Shown here piece by piece: positions 4,392-64,000 of a stretch of DNA of 64,000 nucleotides (positions are counted from its first letter, which is position 1; the number at the start of each line of letters is the position of its first letter). The notes beneath the pieces were generated by a model that worked only from the letters and a program-made list of their open reading frames with translations, was not told the origin of the DNA and did not search any database. Position numbers and translations under genes: made by a program. The stretch lies in assembly GCA_965200965.1 (NCBI GenBank), contig OZ241744.1, forward strand, positions 1,248,001 through 1,312,000. Reading direction: 5' to 3'. Source of the stretch: an uncultured Candidatus Binatia bacterium (GTDB lineage: Bacteria; Desulfobacterota; Binatia; Bin18).

Positions 4392-5621
4392 ATGATCGTC
4401 ATGAATGAACATTATCTCCAGCTCCAGGCGTCGTATTTGTTTTCGGATATCGCCAAGCGGGTGGCCGCGTTTCAGAAACGCCATCCAGACCGGGATGTCA
4501 TCCGGCTGGGGATTGGCGACGTGACCCGCGGTCTGCCGGCGGCCTGCATTGCCGCTCTGCACGCCGCGGTGGACGAAATGGCCAATGACGCGACTTTTCG
4601 TGGCTACGGCCCCGAGTTGGGCTACGAGTTTTTACGCCAGGCAGTCGCCGAGCACGACTTCCAGGCGCGTGGCCTTGATATCTCCCCGGATGAGGTCTTT
4701 ATTAGCGATGGGACTAAGTGCGATTCGGGCAATTTTCAAGAACTGTTCGCCCCGGACACCCGCATTGCCGTGCCCGACCCGGTCTATCCGGTCTATGTTG
4801 ACACGAACGTCATGGCCGGCCGCTCCACCGGCTGGCAGGACGGCCGTTACCAAGGGTTGGTGTATTTGGAATCGACCCAGGACAACAATTACATCCCCGC
4901 CCCGCCCCAGACCAAGGTTGACGTCATCTATCTGTGCTTTCCCAACAATCCGACCGGCAGCATGGTCACCGGGGACCAACTCCGGCCGTGGGTGGACTAT
5001 GCCAGGGACAACAAAGCCCTGATTCTGTACGACGCGGCTTATGTCGAGTTTATCCGCGACAACAGCCTGCCCCAGAGCATCTATGATGTGGACGGGGCCA
5101 AGGAGGTAGCGGTCGAGTTTCGCAGCTTCTCAAAGACGGCCGGGTTTACCGGCACCCGCTGCGCCTACACCATTGTGCCCAAGCCGTGTCGGGTCTACGA
5201 CTCGCAGGGTAGGGCCCACGCCTTGCATGCGCTGTGGGACCGCCGCCAATCGACCAAGTTCAACGGGGTGTCGTATCCGGTCCAGCGGGCCGCGCAGGCG
5301 GTGTACTCCCCACAGGGCAAACGGCAGGTCCGGGAGTTGAGCGATTATTACCTGGCCAACGCGGCCCTGATTCGTCAGACCATGAGCGGCCTCGGCTACG
5401 CCTGTGTGGGCGGTGAACACGCCCCCTATGTCTGGATCAAGGCCGCTACCGACTCGTGGGAGTTCTTTGACCTGCTGCTGAACAAGGCCGGGGTGGTGTG
5501 TACCCCGGGCGCAGGTTTTGGCAAGTGTGGCGAGGGCTACGCCCGGCTCAGCGCGTTTACCAGCAGGGAAAACGTCGAGACGGCCCTTGAGCGGATCAAC
5601 GCGGCCCTGCGCGGCCCATAA
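4392..5621 (+). CDS. dapL: LL-diaminopimelate aminotransferase
   Basis: YLFSDIAKRV, IRLGIGDVT, GYGPE.GY.FLR, CFPNNPTG, SFSKTAGFTGTR (PLP Lys). Start set at the ATG after a GAGGAGG SD. Confidence 0.93.
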   Translation: MIVMNEHYLQLQASYLFSDIAKRVAAFQKRHPDRDVIRLGIGDVTRGLPAACIAALHAAVDEMANDATFRGYGPELGYEFLRQAVAEHDFQARGLDISPDEVFISDGTKCDSGNFQELFAPDTRIAVPDPVYPVYVDTNVMAGRSTGWQDGRYQGLVYLESTQDNNYIPAPPQTKVDVIYLCFPNNPTGSMVTGDQLRPWVDYARDNKALILYDAAYVEFIRDNSLPQSIYDVDGAKEVAVEFRSFSKTAGFTGTRCAYTIVPKPCRVYDSQGRAHALHALWDRRQSTKFNGVSYPVQRAAQAVYSPQGKRQVRELSDYYLANAALIRQTMSGLGYACVGGEHAPYVWIKAATDSWEFFDLLLNKAGVVCTPGAGFGKCGEGYARLSAFTSRENVETALERINAALRGP

Positions 5622-55155: not shown

Positions 55156-56319
55156 CTATCCCTCTCGCGCCAGCCGCAGGGCCGCCTCATACACCATGCT
55201 GAGCGGCACATCGTGCTCCCGCGCGCAGCGTTTGCAGTCTTCATATTCAGGGGCGATGTGGATGCGCCCGTCCGGTCGGTGGGCCAGCTTGAGGCCCACC
55301 CGCCCATAGGGGGTCTCAAGGTCTCTGTGTTCGCGCCGCAACGCCAGCCGCTCAACCGGATAGACGCGGATGCCCAGGGTTGAGGTCTCGGCAAAAAGCA
55401 GCCCGCTCAGGCGTTCCCGGTCGGCGACCTCACACAACACCCACAGCAGAATCCCGGGCCGGTTCTTCTTCATGTGGATGGGACACAAAAAGACATCGCG
55501 CGCGCCCGCGGCCAGCGCCCGCTCCATGATATGCTCGTAGAACTCGGGGTTGAGATCGTCAATGTTGGTCTCCAAGACCAGCAGATGATCGGTCCGGGGC
55601 GGCTGATGGCTGTGACCAAGGACCACCCGCAGGACATTCGGACGATCGTCCAGCGTCCGCTCCCCCGCCCCATAGCCGACCGCCTCAATCTGTACGGCGG
55701 GAATGGTTCCAGGCTGGGCGACCGCGGAAAGAATTGCCGCGCCGGTCGGTGTCACCAACTCACTCTGGCCGTCAGCCAAACCCACCGGGAAGCCCTTGAG
55801 GAGTTCAAGCGTGGCCGGCCCAGGAACAGGCAGGATGCCGTGACGCGAGGCCACCAGCCCGCTGCCCAGCGGCAGGGGCGAGACATACACCTGCTCAACG
55901 CCCAGCGCGTGCAGACCGAACGCAGCTCCGACAATATCGACAATCGAATCAACCGCCCCGACCTCATGAAAATGAACCTCTTCGGGCGGGACGCCGTGGA
56001 TGCGGCCCTCGGCTTGGGCCAGGAGGGTAAAAATCCGTAGCGCCGTCTCTTTGACCTGGGGGCGCAAGGCGCTCGCCTGGAGCATATCGGCAAGAGCGCG
56101 AAAGCTGCGCTCGCCCTGCGGCTGCTGGACCTCAACCGCGAATTTCGTCGCCTGAATACCGCTGAGTTGGCGCACGGTCTGACGCAGGCGATAGCCCCTC
56201 AGATCGAGGCTCTCCAGCTCCTGCCGCACGGCCTCAAGCGATACGCCCAGATGCAGCAAGGCCCCGACCGTCATATCGCCACTGATCCCGGCAAAGGCGT
56301 CGAAATAGGCGATTTTCAT
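55156..56319 (-). CDS. larC: Nickel-pincer cofactor biosynthesis protein LarC
   Basis: FAGISGDM, VHFHEVGAVDSIVD, PVPGPAT, ELVTPTGAA, ETNIDD, MKKNRPG, PEYED. Confidence 0.93.
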   Translation of the reverse strand: MKIAYFDAFAGISGDMTVGALLHLGVSLEAVRQELESLDLRGYRLRQTVRQLSGIQATKFAVEVQQPQGERSFRALADMLQASALRPQVKETALRIFTLLAQAEGRIHGVPPEEVHFHEVGAVDSIVDIVGAAFGLHALGVEQVYVSPLPLGSGLVASRHGILPVPGPATLELLKGFPVGLADGQSELVTPTGAAILSAVAQPGTIPAVQIEAVGYGAGERTLDDRPNVLRVVLGHSHQPPRTDHLLVLETNIDDLNPEFYEHIMERALAAGARDVFLCPIHMKKNRPGILLWVLCEVADRERLSGLLFAETSTLGIRVYPVERLALRREHRDLETPYGRVGLKLAHRPDGRIHIAPEYEDCKRCAREHDVPLSMVYEAALRLAREG

Positions 56320-56693
56320 GGCGCTCTCTTTTGACCGGGAGCATCGCCAGACGTTTCAGACGGAACGACTCTCACTGCCACCAAGTACAAAGTCTGGGGT
56401 GTCCGCTCCAGCGTGAAGCGGACGCGCTGGCCGGGCACACAGACATCGGCCAGCGCCGGGGCGCGCAGCGCAAAACTGTTTGTTTTTGCTGGAAAGAAAC
56501 CGGGGATCGCCTCATGCGCAATCACCACCCGCTGGTCATGGCGCACGACCTGTTTCACCTCTCCATAGCCGACAAACACATCGGGCGGCGGGAGCGGCTC
56601 GCAGGCCGAGCCGCCGAGCGCAGCGAGCAGAAGCCCCAAACGCCAGACCCTCAGGCCGTCCAGACCTGAGGCGGTCCGTCGCTGGCTGGACAT
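56316..56693 (-). CDS. CusF-like OB-fold lipoprotein
   Basis: Lipobox GSAC; GEVK..VVIAHEAIPGF.PA.T..F..GQRVRFTL. Confidence 0.7.
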   Translation of the reverse strand: MSSQRRTASGLDGLRVWRLGLLLAALGGSACEPLPPPDVFVGYGEVKQVVRHDQRVVIAHEAIPGFFPAKTNSFALRAPALADVCVPGQRVRFTLERTPQTLYLVAVRVVPSETSGDAPGQKRAP

Positions 56694-56709
56694 GGGACAG
56701 ACTCCCATT

Positions 56710-57024
56710 TTACTGCATGGCCGAGAACTCGGTCGGAGAGAGCAGTTTATTGATCTGGCTGAGAATGATGCCCCGCAGCCGTTTGCCGACCTCGGCGCGA
56801 CGCGGGTCGCCTGCCCACTTGGCCCATTTCTCCTGGCGTTCGTTCAGGTCCCGGTAGGCCCACAGGTGGCAGACCTCGTTGAGCTGGCCGACCTCGGTGT
56901 ACCAGAATCCCACCGGCTTGAGGCCGTGCTCGGCTACGCCGGGCAGAATCAGGGTTTTCGCCACCTCCAGATATTCCGGCAGACCGCCAAACGCGAGCTG
57001 ATATGTCCGCAGTTCATAGATCAT
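56710..57024 (-). CDS. NIPSNAP-family protein
   Basis: MIYELRTY, GFWYTEVGQLNEV.HLWAY. Confidence 0.9.
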   Translation of the reverse strand: MIYELRTYQLAFGGLPEYLEVAKTLILPGVAEHGLKPVGFWYTEVGQLNEVCHLWAYRDLNERQEKWAKWAGDPRRAEVGKRLRGIILSQINKLLSPTEFSAMQ

Positions 57025-57054
57025 GGTCACGGCTCCTTGTCACCTCAGGCCCGG

Positions 57055-57915
57055 CTACGCCAGGGCGTTCTTGGCCAGGGCGTCCAACTCGGCCAGCGCC
57101 GCGGCTTCACCGTTGTCACACTCTTGCAGCCAGATGGTAACATGGTCAACGCCCGCGTTCCGGAGTTCGGCCAGCTCTTGGCGGGTCCGAAACTTGCCAG
57201 GAAACCCAAAGGCCAGGACCTTGATTGACTGCGGGTCACGGCCCGCCTGCTCGGCCATCTCGTTCAGGCGTTGGCGGCCGGCTTTGATATCTTCGACCGG
57301 CGACAGGACCGGCATCCAGCCGTCGCCCCACTCCACCACCCGCTTGAACACATACTGCGACGATCCGCCCATGTAGACCGGCGGGTGGGGTTTCTGGACC
57401 GGCTTGGGAAAAGACCGCACGGCCGGAAAGTCATAGTATTTGCCGTGATACTCGGCCTCGTCTTGGGCCCACAGTTCCTTCATGGCCAGGACCCCATCCC
57501 TGGTCTGGCCCCAGCGGTGATCAAAATCCCCGCCCATGATCTCGGTTTCTTCTCTGAGCCAGCCGGCACCAATCCCCAGAATAAAACGTCCGCCCGACAG
57601 CCTATCCAGGGTCGCCACCTCCTTGGCCAGCAGCAGAGGATTGCGCTCAGGAATGAGGCAAATGCCAGTCCCCAACTCAATTGTGCTGGTAACTGCCGAG
57701 GCTCGGGCCAGGGCCACGAAGGGGTCCAGAATGCGCCCGTACTCGTCAGGAATAATCCCGTCCTCAGCCCCCGGATAGGGCGAGGTGGTCTGTATCGGAA
57801 TAATCGGATGCTCTGGCACCCAGTACGAGGCAAAGCCCAGCTCCTCAGTCCGCTTGGCCACAACGGCTGGATCGACAGAGCGGTCAATGGCGAACTCAAA
57901 AATCCCTATCTTCAT
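57055..57915 (-). CDS. LLM-class F420-dependent oxidoreductase (Rv2161c-like)
   Basis: YWVPEH, LDPFVAL, LAKEVATLDRLSGGRF, GAGWLREE, PKPVQKPHPP, WGDGWMP. Confidence 0.9.
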   Translation of the reverse strand: MKIGIFEFAIDRSVDPAVVAKRTEELGFASYWVPEHPIIPIQTTSPYPGAEDGIIPDEYGRILDPFVALARASAVTSTIELGTGICLIPERNPLLLAKEVATLDRLSGGRFILGIGAGWLREETEIMGGDFDHRWGQTRDGVLAMKELWAQDEAEYHGKYYDFPAVRSFPKPVQKPHPPVYMGGSSQYVFKRVVEWGDGWMPVLSPVEDIKAGRQRLNEMAEQAGRDPQSIKVLAFGFPGKFRTRQELAELRNAGVDHVTIWLQECDNGEAAALAELDALAKNALA

Positions 57916-57949
57916 ACCTGTCTCCTTGTGTGTCTCTTCTGTATACCTG

Positions 57950-58711
57950 TCATAGCAGACCGAAGCCTCTGCCGGCCAGGGCCAGACCGAGCAGCCCGCC
58001 AACAAGCGTCAGCCCTATTCCGGTCCACCCCCACTCCAGCGGATAGGGATCGGTGAGGCGGGGGCCGGTAATCCCCGGAATGCTCGGCAAATCGCCATCC
58101 CCGCCGCCAACCTTTAGCTGGGCCTTCATCCCTTTTTCCATATGGTGCGGCACATCACAGTGGACCAGATACGTCCTGCTTCCCGGCGGCACGATAAAGC
58201 CGGCAGTTTTCTGCCCTTTTCCCGCTACCTCCAGGGTGAACATCCCCTGGTCATACAGATAGCGGGGCAGGCCGTGAAGCATCCACTGGTGGCGGACCTC
58301 GTCGGTATTGATCAGGCTGACGGTGAGCTGAGTACACGGCTCGACCGCCCACTCATGCTGATCGTAGGTGAACATCGTGCCCGCAAGCGCAAATTCTTTA
58401 CCGGCGCGGACGGTGATGTGGTGTTCGCCGGCGATGCGTGGACAGCCCCGGGGCAGCTCGTCGGTGTTCTCATTCATGACCATACCGGAGGCGTCCAGCC
58501 GCATAACATGGTGCTCATGCGGCTGGTGGTCGGTGTGGGGCTGCGCCTCCATCTGGCCCTGATGGTCGGCATGGTGGTCGGTCTTCGGCTCGGCCTCCAT
58601 CTGGTGGCCGGTGTGGCCCTGAGGCGCGTGGCTGGACGGCGCGGCGTCCTGGCTCACACCCAGGGCGGGAAACACACCCACGGCAAACACGGCCAGAAAG
58701 AAGAGCGCCAC
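57950..58711 (-). CDS. Exported, C-terminally anchored cupredoxin with His-rich linker
   Basis: Signal peptide, His-rich region, RHQWMLHG and HCDVPHHMEKGM type-1 Cu motif, C-terminal TM. Confidence 0.8.
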   Translation of the reverse strand: MALFFLAVFAVGVFPALGVSQDAAPSSHAPQGHTGHQMEAEPKTDHHADHQGQMEAQPHTDHQPHEHHVMRLDASGMVMNENTDELPRGCPRIAGEHHITVRAGKEFALAGTMFTYDQHEWAVEPCTQLTVSLINTDEVRHQWMLHGLPRYLYDQGMFTLEVAGKGQKTAGFIVPPGSRTYLVHCDVPHHMEKGMKAQLKVGGGDGDLPSIPGITGPRLTDPYPLEWGWTGIGLTLVGGLLGLALAGRGFGLL

Positions 58712-58714
58712 AAG

Positions 58715-60415
58715 CTAGACTCCCTGCAAACGTCGCACCACAGCACGCAGCCCAGCCGCCAGTCCGCCGAGCAAAAGTCCGCTCAGCAGCCCAATCAGCA
58801 CCGCCCGACCCCAGTTCAGGGTCCGGCTCGTAGCCTGTCCGAGTAGACCCGAGTCGTCGAGGGTACCCCAGATCGGGACTTTCCTCTGATAGTAGGCCGG
58901 GCTGAAGAACGGCGTCCAGTCCATGCCTTGCGTCTTTGGCCAGCCGGTTTCGGCCAGGAAGGACTCGTACACAATCGCGCTGATATTGCCGCCCGGATTG
59001 ATGCCGTTGGTGGTCACGCCCTTCCCTCTGTGGTCGTGCAACAGCCACACGCCCGGTCCGTAGTTGTGGAGACCATCGTTGACCGTCCGCAGGTGCAGAT
59101 CGAGCCGTTGAGCGGGTGCCAGCCAGACTACATCACGCGTAATCTGGGCGGCCGGATTATGCTCCACACCATCGTAATGGGTAATCCTGACCTTGTGGCC
59201 GTGGGTGTGCAGAGCAATCCCCTCAACCCCCCCGTTCAGCACGCGCAGTTTCACGTTCTGGTCGGGTTTGACGACCACTAGTGACTCGCGCATGGTGTAC
59301 GGAAACGAACGGCCGTTCAGAACAAAATAATCGGGCGTCTGATCGGTACTATCATAGCCCCGGTTGGTGGCCTCGGCCAGCAACCGGGGGTCATTGGCCG
59401 TCTGAATCATTTCGTGCAGGGTCTGATCCAGGTCCTGGTAGTGCAGGTCATACTCGCGGTCGTAGGTCTGCCGGACAGCCTGCGAAGGAAAGCGCACCTG
59501 TCCGGCACCAGGGTTGAGGGTCTGGACCCAGTTGTTGGGCTGGTTTTCCTCAACCACAAACATCCCCTGTAAGCCCATCACAATATGAACGTTGGGTTGG
59601 ACATGGCAGTGATAAAACATGGTCCCGGTCTGGCGTGGCCTCAGATCATAGGTTCGACTTTGGCCCGGAAGCACCGGTGGTTCACTGGCGACAGGCACAC
59701 CGTCGTTGCCCTCTCCAGCGCTATCGACAAAGGGGTGATCGACCCCGTGCAAGTGGATCGTATGGGGCAAATAGTGGGTGTTCTCCAAGGTAAGCCGCAG
59801 GCGGTCGCCCTGTTCCACCCGAATGACCGGAGCCGGAGCACGCAGGTTGGGGTGAGCCACATCCGTGTCAAAGTTTTCGGTTGCCATGCCACGCGTTTTG
59901 GGGGCAAAGACCCACAGCCCTGGCTCCACTCCAGGGGCGATGGCATAGCGCGGAAAGGGACCTGGAATATCCGGCGAGCGGCCGTTGAGTTCGGCCACTT
60001 CAAGGCGGATATGAATCACGTCAGGGTCCCCGTCTCCGTCCCGGTCTCCGTCTTTGACGACGGTCGTGGGGGTCAGCCGGGTCTGCATCAGGACCGCCAT
60101 CGGGACATTGTTGGTGCCTCTGACAAAGGCGGCCACCTCAGCCGGATTGTCCGGCTCACACACCAGCGATTCCTCAATCGGCACCCCGGCCACGATCTGG
60201 TGTTGGCGCCAGTCTGGATGAAGATTCGGGCAAAACGGCTCGGCCGTGCCGAGCTCCATATCTGCGGTGTCCGGCGGACGCTGATACGAGGATGCTCCGA
60301 GGGCGGCATATAGAAAGTCTTGTACAGTCTGCGGCAGCCACGAGCGCGGCAGCACCAGCACCACAGCGCCGAACCAGACCAGCAGCGACACCGTCAGCAG
60401 ACGAGGCGGAAACAT
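58715..60415 (-). CDS. Two-domain multicopper oxidase, membrane anchored
   Basis: HTIHLHG, YHCHVQPNVHIVMGL (T1 in domain 1), LHTHGH, WLLHDH; N- and C-terminal hydrophobic segments. Confidence 0.88.
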   Translation of the reverse strand: MFPPRLLTVSLLVWFGAVVLVLPRSWLPQTVQDFLYAALGASSYQRPPDTADMELGTAEPFCPNLHPDWRQHQIVAGVPIEESLVCEPDNPAEVAAFVRGTNNVPMAVLMQTRLTPTTVVKDGDRDGDGDPDVIHIRLEVAELNGRSPDIPGPFPRYAIAPGVEPGLWVFAPKTRGMATENFDTDVAHPNLRAPAPVIRVEQGDRLRLTLENTHYLPHTIHLHGVDHPFVDSAGEGNDGVPVASEPPVLPGQSRTYDLRPRQTGTMFYHCHVQPNVHIVMGLQGMFVVEENQPNNWVQTLNPGAGQVRFPSQAVRQTYDREYDLHYQDLDQTLHEMIQTANDPRLLAEATNRGYDSTDQTPDYFVLNGRSFPYTMRESLVVVKPDQNVKLRVLNGGVEGIALHTHGHKVRITHYDGVEHNPAAQITRDVVWLAPAQRLDLHLRTVNDGLHNYGPGVWLLHDHRGKGVTTNGINPGGNISAIVYESFLAETGWPKTQGMDWTPFFSPAYYQRKVPIWGTLDDSGLLGQATSRTLNWGRAVLIGLLSGLLLGGLAAGLRAVVRRLQGV

Positions 60416-60512: not shown

Positions 60513-61769
60513 CTAGGGCAGATACTGGGGGGTGAAGCGGGTTGGGACGAGGCTTGAGCGGACCGTGACCAACTCCTGGTCGCCGGCCGCGTTCTCAAAC
60601 TGGAACACACCGGCGATATACTGCTGCGGGGCGCTGAGCGGAATCAGGCGTTCGATGCCGAATAAGGTGCTCGAAATGCTGAGTCTCAACTCTTGAGTTT
60701 CGCCCGGTTCAATCGGAACGTTGGGGTCAACGTTGAGAGGCCCAACAAAATCGCGCGGCCCTGCCGCGGCCTGCTCGTGTTCGCCGCCGTTGACAAAGCT
60801 GGCCATCGCCATCGTGTATTTCTTCACACTGATCGGGCTGTCGGCAACGTTGGTGACCCGGACGCCCATCTCCAGCGTCTCGGTCCCCTCGTCAAAGGTC
60901 GCCCCGGTCGCCCGTACCTCGGCCATTTTCGGTCCTGATGAGATGAAGTCTGGCGTGAACCAGTCGGTCTGCTGCGGCCATCTGACCGGATAGCTCGTCG
61001 TTGCGTAGGTCCAGCCGACCACCAGCATAATAAGCGCAACCCCGGCGATCACATTCATCCACATATGGTCACGCGGAGTAATGAGACCAAGGTCGGGTGC
61101 GTCGTCGTTGGGGGGAATCTGGAGGGTCACGGCCAAGTTTGTGACTGTCCGTTTGGTGAGGGTCCAGTACAGCATCCAGATGATGCCCAGCCCAAAGCCA
61201 AGAAACGACCACCAGACGACAAAGCTGCTGCCATAGCTGCTCAGTTCAATGGTCTCGCCGCTCAGCAGGGTGACCGGAAACTCAAGCGGCGTCGGGCTTG
61301 ACGCGACTGTGACCCATTCAGCCGGGCCGATAAGGGTGCCGGTTCCGTGGATGGCAATCCCGGGATGCACATGCCATTCGCCGGGTTCTTTGCCGATGAT
61401 GACCATGCGGAACTCGTACATGCCACCCTTTTCAACAAAAAATGAGCCGATTGAGGCCTCTCCGTTGACCGTTCGCTCCTTGAGCATGAATACCGGTCCG
61501 GGGACCACCGGAATGATAGAGGCAATCTCCGGGGTGTAGAGCGTGTGCGGCCAAGTCTCCAGGATCTTGACCTTACCGGTGATGGTGACCGGGTCGCCGA
61601 CCTGAATTTCGGTCGGCGACACCGAAACATCGAAAAACGCGGTCGTCAGGTTTTTCAAGAACGGCTCATCCGCGGCCTCGCCGTGGGCAAAAACCCGAGG
61701 AACGCCAATGACGGCAGTCCAGCCGAAAAGCATCAGGCTGAGCAAGACCCGTCCGGTCGGCTTAGTCAT
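60513..61769 (-). CDS. Copper membrane monooxygenase subunit B (PmoB/AmoB family)
   Basis: Signal peptide then HGE (N-terminal His), WHVHP CuB motif, LIGP, two TMs, second beta domain (PIEPGET). Confidence 0.92.
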   Translation of the reverse strand: MTKPTGRVLLSLMLFGWTAVIGVPRVFAHGEAADEPFLKNLTTAFFDVSVSPTEIQVGDPVTITGKVKILETWPHTLYTPEIASIIPVVPGPVFMLKERTVNGEASIGSFFVEKGGMYEFRMVIIGKEPGEWHVHPGIAIHGTGTLIGPAEWVTVASSPTPLEFPVTLLSGETIELSSYGSSFVVWWSFLGFGLGIIWMLYWTLTKRTVTNLAVTLQIPPNDDAPDLGLITPRDHMWMNVIAGVALIMLVVGWTYATTSYPVRWPQQTDWFTPDFISSGPKMAEVRATGATFDEGTETLEMGVRVTNVADSPISVKKYTMAMASFVNGGEHEQAAAGPRDFVGPLNVDPNVPIEPGETQELRLSISSTLFGIERLIPLSAPQQYIAGVFQFENAAGDQELVTVRSSLVPTRFTPQYLP

Positions 61770-62049
61770 TGACCAGCCTCCTCTCTACCACCCGCAGGCG
61801 TGGTTTCTGCTTGATCCGAATGGCGTCGTCGGCCTGTCCGGTCGGCTCAAGCACCGGGAGCTTGGAGTTTCGACCCGCCGGCCACAGCACAATGAGCCAG
61901 TAGCAGGCCAGACCGAGCAGGACCGCGGTGACAACAGGAGGGGCCATCTCGTCCAGACCCATACCGTGGGCCTGCCCGGGTGACGGCAGGGCGAGCAGGG
62001 CGGCTAGGCTGGCCGACCCGAGCTTGCTCCATTGCGTTGTGCTTGGCAT
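61762..62049 (-). CDS. Small single-pass membrane protein between xmoA and xmoB
   Basis: Starts 7 bp after the xmoA stop and overlaps the xmoB start by 8 bp; signal-like GQA|HGMGLDEM, TM, basic tail. Confidence 0.7.
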   Translation of the reverse strand: MPSTTQWSKLGSASLAALLALPSPGQAHGMGLDEMAPPVVTAVLLGLACYWLIVLWPAGRNSKLPVLEPTGQADDAIRIKQKPRLRVVERRLVND

Positions 62050-62056
62050 GGCGATC

Positions 62057-62860
62057 TCACAAGGTTTTCAGGTAGCGTCTGATCGGCCACACCGCCAGAT
62101 AGCGGCCAATGAACTGGCCGATCCAATACCCCGCAAAGGCGACCGTGCCGCCAAAGACCAGCGAAACATACTGGGTTTCGCCCAAGAAGCTGCGCAGCGC
62201 GCCACGCTCAATCAGGCGCAGGTACTCCGGCGTCTGTGAGCGGATATAGGCGATGCCCTGGACATCGGCGACCGTCACCACATGGTCCATGAAATGGGCC
62301 GGCTGGAGAAAGGGCGACAGGGGCACATAGTTATAGGCCCACACCGCAATCGCCCAGACGTGCGCGCCAATGAGGGAGGTCAGGATAAAGCTCCTGGTTT
62401 TCATCAGGGTCCAGTCCATCAGGATGCCGGCCCCGACAATGGAGATCGGCCACACAAAGTTCATAGGATAGGTTTGGGCCATATCCCACTGAAAATAGCG
62501 CCCTACCCAGGTCGCCAGAAACATGCAGCAGGCGGTGTAGGTTGCCCCGGTGGGGAAACGCCAAGCCACCCACTGGATATATTGCAGGGCAGACGGGATG
62601 ATGATCGTGGCAAAAGCGGTGACTACCGGCCACCACTGGGGATCTTTCCAGTCGGTCCAGAAGTCCCAGTCACCGGCGAACAACTGCTTGGTGATATCCG
62701 CCGCCCCGGCAACGACAAAGATGGCCGTGACCCAGAAGATCAGGTCCCACTTCCAATCGATCCATTTATACTTTTTTTCCAGCAGGGCCTTGAGCTCGAG
62801 CCGTTTTTGGCGTTCGGCCTCGGCTGCCAAGTCTGCTACGGGAGCTGATGCGTCTGCCAT
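62057..62860 (-). CDS. Copper membrane monooxygenase subunit A (PmoA/AmoA family)
   Basis: AGDWDFWTDWKD.QWWPVV, RFPTGAT, YPMNFVWP, ADVQG..YIRSQTPEYLRLIERG.LRSF. Confidence 0.95.
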   Translation of the reverse strand: MADASAPVADLAAEAERQKRLELKALLEKKYKWIDWKWDLIFWVTAIFVVAGAADITKQLFAGDWDFWTDWKDPQWWPVVTAFATIIIPSALQYIQWVAWRFPTGATYTACCMFLATWVGRYFQWDMAQTYPMNFVWPISIVGAGILMDWTLMKTRSFILTSLIGAHVWAIAVWAYNYVPLSPFLQPAHFMDHVVTVADVQGIAYIRSQTPEYLRLIERGALRSFLGETQYVSLVFGGTVAFAGYWIGQFIGRYLAVWPIRRYLKTL

Positions 62861-62893: not shown

Positions 62894-63733
62894 TTAGTCA
62901 GCGGCGACAGGCTGCTCAGCCGGCTGGGCCGGAGCGCCACTCTCGGCGTCTTCCTCGGCCTTCTCAATCTCGAACAGATGGACAATGGTTTCTCCCCACA
63001 CGGCGAACATCCCGCTGGCCAGCCAGCCATAAATCACAAACGGCCAGTGGAACGGCACCGAGAAAATCTCCTCGGAGATCCATAGACTGTGGCCCCATTC
63101 GTTGGCCGCCACCGCCATACATTCCAGGGCCGCGGCCGCAATCAGCAGGGCAAACGACCACGGAAACCCTTTGTCGCGGCCATAGACGCTCGGAATACGG
63201 TAGCGCCCGTACAGATAGGTTCCCACGGCCAGGACAACGGTCAGCGGGAAAAAGAAATAGAACATCGGAATGTGGGTCGGGGTCAGCGCCGTATCACGCA
63301 CCATAGTCTGATGCCACGAAGCGTCCCAGTTCGGCCAGAAGCTGGCCTCCAGATAAATGGACAGGCTGGTCACGCCGACCAAACTCCACAAAATAGCAAC
63401 TCGTCGGACCTGTTCGGACCGGGCCACCGGCTGCCCCTCTATTTCCCGACCGGTGCGGATCAACCAGCCCAACCAGAGGCCGGCAAACGCGCCGATAATG
63501 ATCAACTCCGCCCAGAACAGCGAGCGGTAGTACAGGCTGAACTCCCAACTCGCCGAGTTCAGCCCAGCCGTGAACATATACCAGTAGTTCCAGAACCACA
63601 GAAAAATGTTGGCCGCCATGACCAACCCGCAGCCCCAGAACAGCGGCTTCCAGCCAACCGACCAGTCGGTCGGATTCATTGTCGCCCTATCGCCGGTTCC
63701 AGTCGATACCGATATTGCCTGTGTTTGAGCCAT
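62894..63733 (-). CDS. Copper membrane monooxygenase subunit C (PmoC/AmoC family)
   Basis: AGLNS..EF, DASWHQTMVRDTALTPTH (D-x3-H-x12-H), NEWGHSLWISEEIFSVPFHW; GGAGG SD. Confidence 0.95.
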   Translation of the reverse strand: MAQTQAISVSTGTGDRATMNPTDWSVGWKPLFWGCGLVMAANIFLWFWNYWYMFTAGLNSASWEFSLYYRSLFWAELIIIGAFAGLWLGWLIRTGREIEGQPVARSEQVRRVAILWSLVGVTSLSIYLEASFWPNWDASWHQTMVRDTALTPTHIPMFYFFFPLTVVLAVGTYLYGRYRIPSVYGRDKGFPWSFALLIAAAALECMAVAANEWGHSLWISEEIFSVPFHWPFVIYGWLASGMFAVWGETIVHLFEIEKAEEDAESGAPAQPAEQPVAAD

Positions 63734-63782: not shown

Positions 63783-63998
63783 TCACGCCGGGGCTTCGCC
63801 ATGCTGCCGGGAAACAATCGTGTAGCGGATGGCGGAAAGCGCAACGAAGACCAGCACTCCACCCACAATCAGCCCCGGCACCATCAGGGCCTTATACCAT
63901 GCCGCGACCTGAATGGGAAAGGCCAACAGGTGTGATGCCTGGCCCTCGAGTTCAACCATCACCCGGGCAACATAGTCTGTGCCCTTGGCAAAGACTAT
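63783..63998 (-). CDS. Partial (3' end) PmoD/AmoD-like membrane-anchored protein
   Basis: Manual translation IVFAKGTDYVARVMVELEGQASHLLAFPIQVAAWYKALMVPGLIVGGVLVFVALSAIRYTIVSRQHGEAPA*; runs off the window edge and is absent from the ORF track. Confidence 0.6.
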   Translation of the reverse strand: MVFAKGTDYVARVMVELEGQASHLLAFPIQVAAWYKALMVPGLIVGGVLVFVALSAIRYTIVSRQHGEAPA

Positions 63999-64000
63999 CT

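Follow-up and report, generated by a model that had tools for sequence, protein, structure and literature searches.

A described counterpart of the gene studied here was reported by Murphy et al. 2021 (PMC8262859), the available part of which presents CAxB and CAxxB operons of Binatota in 8 genomes, x being a hypothetical protein encoded between A and B; in that part x is named only as hypothetical, with its topology, His, selection, fusion and function not given. It is established that pMMO and AMO can have extra subunits consisting of a single helix; the accessible part of Tucci and Rosenzweig (PMC11725843) describes such helices, among them a 23-residue protein (PmoX) of Methylocystis sp. 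Rockwell and a 46-residue ORF of Nitrosomonas europaea, and also, for M. capsulatus pMMO, an unidentified density that extends between the membrane and CuB. These supernumerary helices, also treated in PMC13058606, have been proposed to mediate array contacts (PMC11725843, PMC13578624), and archaeal systems include AmoX, AmoY and AmoZ as well as Angelarchaeales C-A-X-B operons with a 61-aa X (PMC9038741; bioRxiv 10.64898/2026.08.31.748207), as stated in the portions of these sources that were available; PMC12533140 and PMC8784404 were also consulted.

The gene, here called X, was located on the minus strand of the window, that is, the whole stretch of 64,000 nucleotides that was analyzed, in an operon of the order xmoC (62894..63733, 279 aa), xmoA (62057..62860, 267 aa), X (61762..62049, 95 aa) and xmoB (60513..61769, 418 aa). 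The first-pass annotation had placed a 95-aa ORF between xmoA and xmoB and described it as tightly coupled to both neighbours, and both statements were confirmed: the ORF at 62049-61762 (minus strand) reads ...GQA/HGMGLDEMAPP... (the slash marks the predicted cut), followed by one hydrophobic helix and a basic tail, with a gap of 7 nt between the xmoA stop and the X start and an overlap of 8 nt with the xmoB start. The X start shows weak anti-Shine-Dalgarno pairing (-2.7 kcal/mol), its Shine-Dalgarno being weak or lacking; the xmoB Shine-Dalgarno, AGGAGG, lies inside the 3' end of X (61777..61782, minus strand; duplex -12.0 kcal/mol). A scan of the xmoA-xmoB interval for promoters and terminators returned only consensus noise, and the genome carries a single X copy. 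The x of Murphy et al. is almost certainly X, its doubled form included. Thus, X is already in print, drawn as 'x', and represents a variant on the CuMMO extra-helix theme, to which the present analysis adds the xmoB fusion and an actinobacterial look-alike. Literature searches found no description of the X His tip, the xmoB fusion or the actinobacterial gene, although one may exist in subscription papers or in supplements outside the searches.

The genes flanking X belong to the AMO/Monooxygenase_B/AmoC families (Pfam/NCBIfam), and XmoA, XmoB and XmoC align over the full pMMO subunits with the ligands of CuB, CuC and CuD present. The alignment of XmoA (PF02461, E 2.6e-54) spans all PmoA helices; XmoB (PF04744) has the CuB ligands H29, H133 and H135, both cupredoxin domains and both helices, with the bis-His residues replaced; and XmoC (PF04896) has intact ligands of CuC (D137, H141, H154) and CuD (N211, H215, H229). 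Because the three subunits are complete, X is not a patch for missing helices. The parallel with archaeal AmoX/Y/Z that the first-pass annotation had drawn does not extend to the role: XmoABC are full length, so that X has no truncated core subunit to compensate for, whereas the archaeal proteins stand in for helices missing from short AmoB/AmoC. The archaeal AmoX/Y/Z and the Angelarchaeales X are like the Binatia X, by description, in being extra small membrane genes beside the core, and in Angelarchaeales the C-A-X-B order is also identical. Two peculiarities of the core were also observed. At the N-terminus of XmoB (window 61600-61690), this clade has PFLK[ND]LT versus F[LM]RMR in most CuMMOs, with the bis-His residues missing, and actinobacterial HmoB is likewise without RMR. 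Residue 149 of XmoC (window 63289-63287, RDT-A-LTPTH) is Ala where methanotroph PmoC has Asp, as it is in NBB4 HmoC, which we take to suggest a hydrocarbon rather than methane as the substrate.

Protein X is predicted to begin with a signal peptide of residues 1-27 (61969..62049), variable in sequence and ending in G-Q-A, followed by His28 (61966..61968) as the first mature residue; residues 32-57 (61879..61956) form an E-x-[GA]-P-P start, a transmembrane helix and an invariant YW....WP end, as indicated by AlphaFold2, hydropathy and conservation, and a basic tail motif, IRIKQKPRLRVV (61786..61821), is kept in family f1 and eroded or lost in distant members and orphan copies (all on the minus strand). 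The first-pass annotation's single transmembrane helix and basic tail were supported by this tail motif, conserved in the close family, and by the AlphaFold2 model, which gave a single helix at 32-54 with a pLDDT of 73-88 by block and a disordered tail; the hydropathy peak was 2.1. Among 150 close sequences, a set biased by having been picked by score, A27, H28, P38, Y50, W51, W56, P57 and L85 are invariant, E34 is found in 149 and M30 in 138. More widely, among 95 representatives obtained by 50% clustering, His is present in all 87 that cover its column (8 are gapped), Met at its column in 60 and Glu/Asp in 81. The proposed A-x-A/H site and the conservation of its His, for which a test had been set beforehand, held up, as far as sequence can show, in this and in a sample of 82 diverse members; because Ala stands at -1 in 81 and Ala/Val/Gly at -3 in 77 of the 82, we infer cleavage at Ala/His. 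Mature X would then be 68 aa long and consist of His1, a loop of approximately 10 residues, one helix and a basic cytoplasmic tail, the net charge behind the helix being positive in 64/82.

The earlier description of a His/Met tip needed correction, as the His is invariant and the Met is optional, occurring at +2 to +6 in 54/82, with an acidic residue in 80/82; the tip is thus better described as His plus an acidic residue. LPMO and CopC are histidine-brace proteins, and X resembles such proteins, PmoB with its CuB site included, in that His comes first after the predicted cleavage, but differs in being without the second His. A second His in the periplasmic part was found in 0/82 diverse members; therefore, X has no self-contained histidine brace. 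His at +1 was uncommon in the genome: when ORFs >150 aa were scanned crudely, it occurred at 4/147 signal-like starts. Within the cluster, XmoB and the two PmoD-like proteins are also predicted to start with His.

With the supernumerary helices of pMMO and AMO, which are seen bound to the outer face of subunit C, X shares its small size, single helix and CuMMO linkage, and its predicted N-out topology is that of the Rockwell helix; it is unlike them in lying within the CAB operon and in its predicted cleavable signal and invariant His tip. To our knowledge, the known extra CuMMO helices were found only as cryoEM density. None of the solved supernumerary helices in the PDB matched X at E<=10, though chains of 23-46 residues give such a comparison little power. 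As for other origins, the idea that X duplicates the last helix of XmoA (profile probability 4%) or one of XmoC (0.5%) was rejected, and TAL-repeat matches of the X profile in the PDB were rejected as sums of a short motif in which no single stretch passes. The tail might also be likened to a ClpX-tether motif as in SspB; a literature search on such a tail found nothing, and the motif is lost in distant X members.

X is confined to one CuMMO clade and lies almost always between xmoA and xmoB. In the 251 genomes of the class, X was found directly behind xmoA in 46/47 Binatia genomes with this xmoA type (72-100% identity), the exception (G038) being a contig that ends inside xmoA, whereas an X match adjoins 0/34 places with other-type xmoA (31-41% identity); in 18 other-type loci inspected directly, A and B nearly abut or there is no X-like frame. 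All 75 metagenome loci with X carry xmo genes beside it, both xmoA and xmoB in 63, only A in 8 and only B in 4, the search pattern favouring close members. Four families share this placement of X within the structural operon. A phylum-wide sample contained X in 2/301 genomes, both Binatia, and no X was found in viral contigs. Tandem XX occurs in one genome (G121) and in 2/75 metagenome loci (L201, L206), and 18 genomes of genus g8, 8 of which were inspected, have a second, short-tailed X at a distance from any xmo gene; these stand-alone copies retain His and Glu and not Met. In the inspected genomes they are distant from both xmo clusters and lie near genes labelled by eye as FadB-like (~696 aa) and aminopeptidase-like (~430 aa) (L119, L121, L123, L125, L126, L131, L132, L135; ~4700-5400 in each). 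It was also observed that many f1 genomes have two CuMMO operons, that Binatia genomes contain further deep-branching xmoCAB types without X (L036-L050, L219-L225), and that in one locus (L054, G019:C26) xmoA, X and xmoB each look frameshifted, probably owing to homopolymer assembly errors.

Furthermore, X was found fused in frame to xmoB in 10/75 metagenome loci (L166, L178, L179, L181, L189, L191, L192, L193, L196, L197; e.g., L192:381-1958, plus strand), and the same fusion is present in protein P0139. Compared with unfused sisters, a deletion has removed the X end together with the Shine-Dalgarno of xmoB, and the tail motif now runs into the signal peptide of XmoB. The junctions are 77-99% identical among loci, and because they differ the fusion is not one assembly error. 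XmoB is complete at 390 residues in 5 fused loci, cut by the contig end in 2, shorter in 1 and frameshifted later in 2. In a quick tree of 109 rows, from which duplicates and loci with XmoB not covering residues 32-200 were excluded and in which 7 of the 10 fused loci were kept, the fused rows cluster together within the unfused ones (support 93), and the fusion is therefore one event and not repeated evidence. In the fused loci, translation might still restart internally at the old xmoB ATG, before which anti-Shine-Dalgarno pairing is -0.4 to -3.9 kcal/mol (8 loci) versus -8.1 to -9.5 in 4 unfused sisters; initiation at X itself would depend on the nearby xmoA stop. AlphaFold2 of the natural fusion gave confident XmoB domains, with the X part, covered by 8/37 rows, at pLDDT <50. 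The predicted fused product is a polyprotein containing two signal peptides, and its topology is consistent with signal peptidase cutting it at both, either cut exposing a His; such a polyprotein, if true, would be unusual in bacteria. Roughly 1:1 output of X and XmoB would be at least tolerated in the fused lineage. Taken together, the strict clade linkage and the in-frame fusion support the view that X may be a dedicated partner of this enzyme.

A gene resembling X was found in actinobacterial plasmids. A gene of 71-98 aa lies directly behind hmoB in 4/4 of the actinobacterial plasmid hmoCAB operons found (L214:5101-5316, L215:5078-5359, L216:5576-5833, L217:5577-5873), those of Mycolicibacterium chubuense NBB4 (MYCCH_RS28755), Rhodococcus WAY2, ZPP and M. 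dioxanotrophicus, in which the hmoA-hmoB spacing is 4-26 nt. The encoded protein has a short leader and a His tip reading AHGGQ[ML]T[GS]DE[MI]A, behind which come a single helix and basic residues; among 72,556 plasmids only these 4 match, and the His is kept in all 32 homologues. In common with X are the A-H-G-G-x-M-x-x-D-E tip with its spacing and the lone helix followed by basic residues, and distant X members (P0200, P0202) read HGGGM[TS]G[QE][ED]L. The post-hmoB gene differs from X in standing after B and not before it, in having 5-7 residues ahead of the His and no classical signal peptide, and in a helix without YW....WP. Between the mature X and post-hmoB profiles, only the 11-column tip aligns, with a probability of 48%, which was equalled by 1/100 column shuffles and 1/60 loop shuffles; PmoD starts gave 11% and XmoB starts 2% in the same comparison. 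The helices remained unaligned, the best cross-HMM E was ~1e-3 per 1000 sequences, and the full-length comparison, with 4 sequences, gave 15%. A pattern of Ala-His, short loop, helix, basic pair and short ORF matched 4/4 actinobacterial loci, 0/18 X-less Binatia loci and 8 places in a six-frame whole genome; among 8 further X-less loci there was one match, which by eye resembles a PmoD C-terminus. ESM Atlas gave no usable match for X and only sub-0.9 leads for the NBB4 protein, and a literature search on three locus tags of the post-hmoB gene found no description, though subscription papers and supplements may hold one. A second small membrane gene was observed behind the post-hmoB gene in L214 and L217.

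In a 30-taxon C+A+B tree, the X clade and the actinobacterial enzymes group together with an SH-aLRT of 95.7 (fast search, long branches). They are likely sister clades, in agreement with the Actinobacteria/SAR324 cluster presented in the available part of Murphy et al. (PMC8262859). It is plausible from these comparisons that X and the post-hmoB gene share descent, against which stand the differing helices and the missing classical signal peptide of the actinobacterial protein; convergence is a possible explanation of the likeness.

We put at about even chances the interpretation that X is a one-helix accessory subunit of the copper monooxygenase, the His tip of which would bind copper, the other ligands being supplied by the acidic loop of X or by a partner chain. 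This interpretation is favored because of the 46/47 linkage, the invariant His and helix Pro/Tyr/Trp, the fusion, the rarity of His at +1 and the actinobacterial look-alike. Translation of X would be coupled to that of xmoA, its export would use Sec, and cleavage would fall at A-x-A/H. Its helix, with small residues on one face and the invariant YW....WP, would pack on the outer side of those of XmoABC, as supernumerary helices do in pMMO and AMO, and the loop of 8-10 residues would place His1 just above the membrane on the periplasmic side. One copper could be held by the amine and imidazole of His1, the conserved Glu/Asp (with Met optional) and a ligand of a neighbouring chain, and this copper might help to load or retain copper in the enzyme. 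However, XmoABC are full length with their ligands, leaving no gap for X to fill; the other CuMMOs of these genomes manage without it; there is no second His, and no sequence match to the solved supernumerary helices; the fusion is a single event, and the X start has a weak or no Shine-Dalgarno; and the copy number is not strictly 1:1, given the tandem XX and stand-alone g8 copies.

The weak initiation site and these tandem and stand-alone copies would also suit a transient assembly or copper-loading chaperone, which would pass copper to XmoB/XmoC or escort XmoB insertion and be absent from the finished enzyme. The fusion ahead of the XmoB signal peptide would put X where XmoB inserts, and copper-handling genes fill the cluster, PmoD-like, multicopper oxidase-like and CusF-like genes being abundant there, with a multicopper-oxidase-like gene (PF07732/PF07731) at 58715..60415 downstream of xmoB and a His-rich cupredoxin-like gene (weak PF07731) at 57950..58711, both on the minus strand. 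We nevertheless consider a chaperone rather unlikely, as X holds its place in the structural operon across four families, its invariant helix residues are typical of a fixed packing partner, and the fused lineage would make X in step with XmoB. Less probable still is a purely structural helix for trimer or array contacts or lipid binding, in which the His would serve as a protein contact or as a favoured +1 residue with no metal; the single His and variable Met agree with it, as does the array-contact role proposed for known supernumerary helices in the accessible parts of PMC11725843 and PMC13578624, but the invariant His and its acidic residue at a fixed distance, retained also by orphan copies and by the actinobacterial look-alike with its different helix, argue otherwise, as does the rarity of His at +1.

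It is quite improbable that X is a remnant of PmoD that lost the cupredoxin-like domain and kept the signal, the His-Gly-Gly start, the anchor and the tail. According to the available part of PMC6189053, PmoD/AmoD have, like X, a signal peptide (in X with an inferred cleavage), a single membrane anchor and an N-terminal His, but they also have a periplasmic cupredoxin-like domain and two conserved cysteines, whereas X, with approximately 10 residues from the His to the helix, has no folded periplasmic domain and no cysteine pair. Binatia PmoD-like proteins begin A/HGGVG, and the C-terminus of some is a basic P-x-L-R tail resembling that of X. Against a remnant, the profile match covers only the signal and first residues, at 38%, which is close to the 37% given by XmoB, the mature parts reach 11%, the helices do not align, the cysteine pair is absent, and true PmoD-like genes adjoin X. 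One of these lies upstream of xmoC with its 3' part at 63783..64000 (minus strand) and extends past the window (G000:C1:1312355-1311783); its predicted mature N-terminus is also His, and a relative of its family matched PmoD 6CPD at E 1.5e-9.

Finally, a non-coding spacer or chance frame, to which the lack of a Pfam or NCBIfam family at E<=0.1 might point, is refuted because X shows the pattern of selection, namely, low dN/dS, variation concentrated at third codon positions (0.42 vs 0.10 at second positions), a reading frame maintained across many indels, and 335 homologous proteins at E<=0.1 in the X profile search, and we give it practically no credence. X is a real gene under purifying selection. 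Pooled pairwise dN/dS was 0.12-0.19 for the core from His28 to Pro57, 0.01-0.24 for the tail motif, 0.36-0.55 for the signal peptide and linker and 0.28-0.31 for the whole of X versus 0.03-0.05 for xmoA. The named proteins among 120 listed matches of the profile search are all 'hypothetical'. Conservation of the ORF in homologous clusters, for which the test had likewise been fixed in advance, was demonstrated in relatives, where X is intact with 93-146 codons in 30/30 of the best xmoA loci (own locus included; xmoA matches among 61 genomes).

If X is an accessory subunit, it bears on copper entry into and retention by membrane copper monooxygenases and on the role of extra helices. As a candidate, it is operon-encoded and carries a probable metal ligand, and a gene resembling it occurs in hydrocarbon oxidisers that can be cultured and genetically manipulated (mycobacteria); its role is testable because of the xmoB fusion and this look-alike from culturable hosts. 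More speculatively, and with a probability that we judge to be low, the hydrocarbon-type CuMMOs of Binatia and Actinobacteria may share a fourth operon-encoded subunit, the N-terminal His of which would form an inter-subunit periplasmic copper site, one Binatia lineage making it as an XmoB polyprotein cut twice into two His-tipped chains. If this were true, the 'hmoCAB' of NBB4, the expression of which was reportedly described in Coleman et al. 2012, would be a four-gene system, and heterologous expression may be affected if three-gene constructs miss a needed part.

Additional features were observed around the cluster. The run downstream of it (window 55156-58711) contains His-rich cupredoxin-like, F420-type LLM oxidoreductase, NIPSNAP, CusF-like and LarC nickel insertase genes. 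A second PmoD-like gene, found 3' of xmoB in most relatives, is absent here (window 60513-60415) and in G007, and it looks frameshifted in L035 (L031 compared with L032-L035). Approximately 3 kb upstream of the xmo cluster and outside the window, a gene labelled by eye as PQQ-dehydrogenase-like (G000:C1:1315297-1317015) is retained in close relatives.
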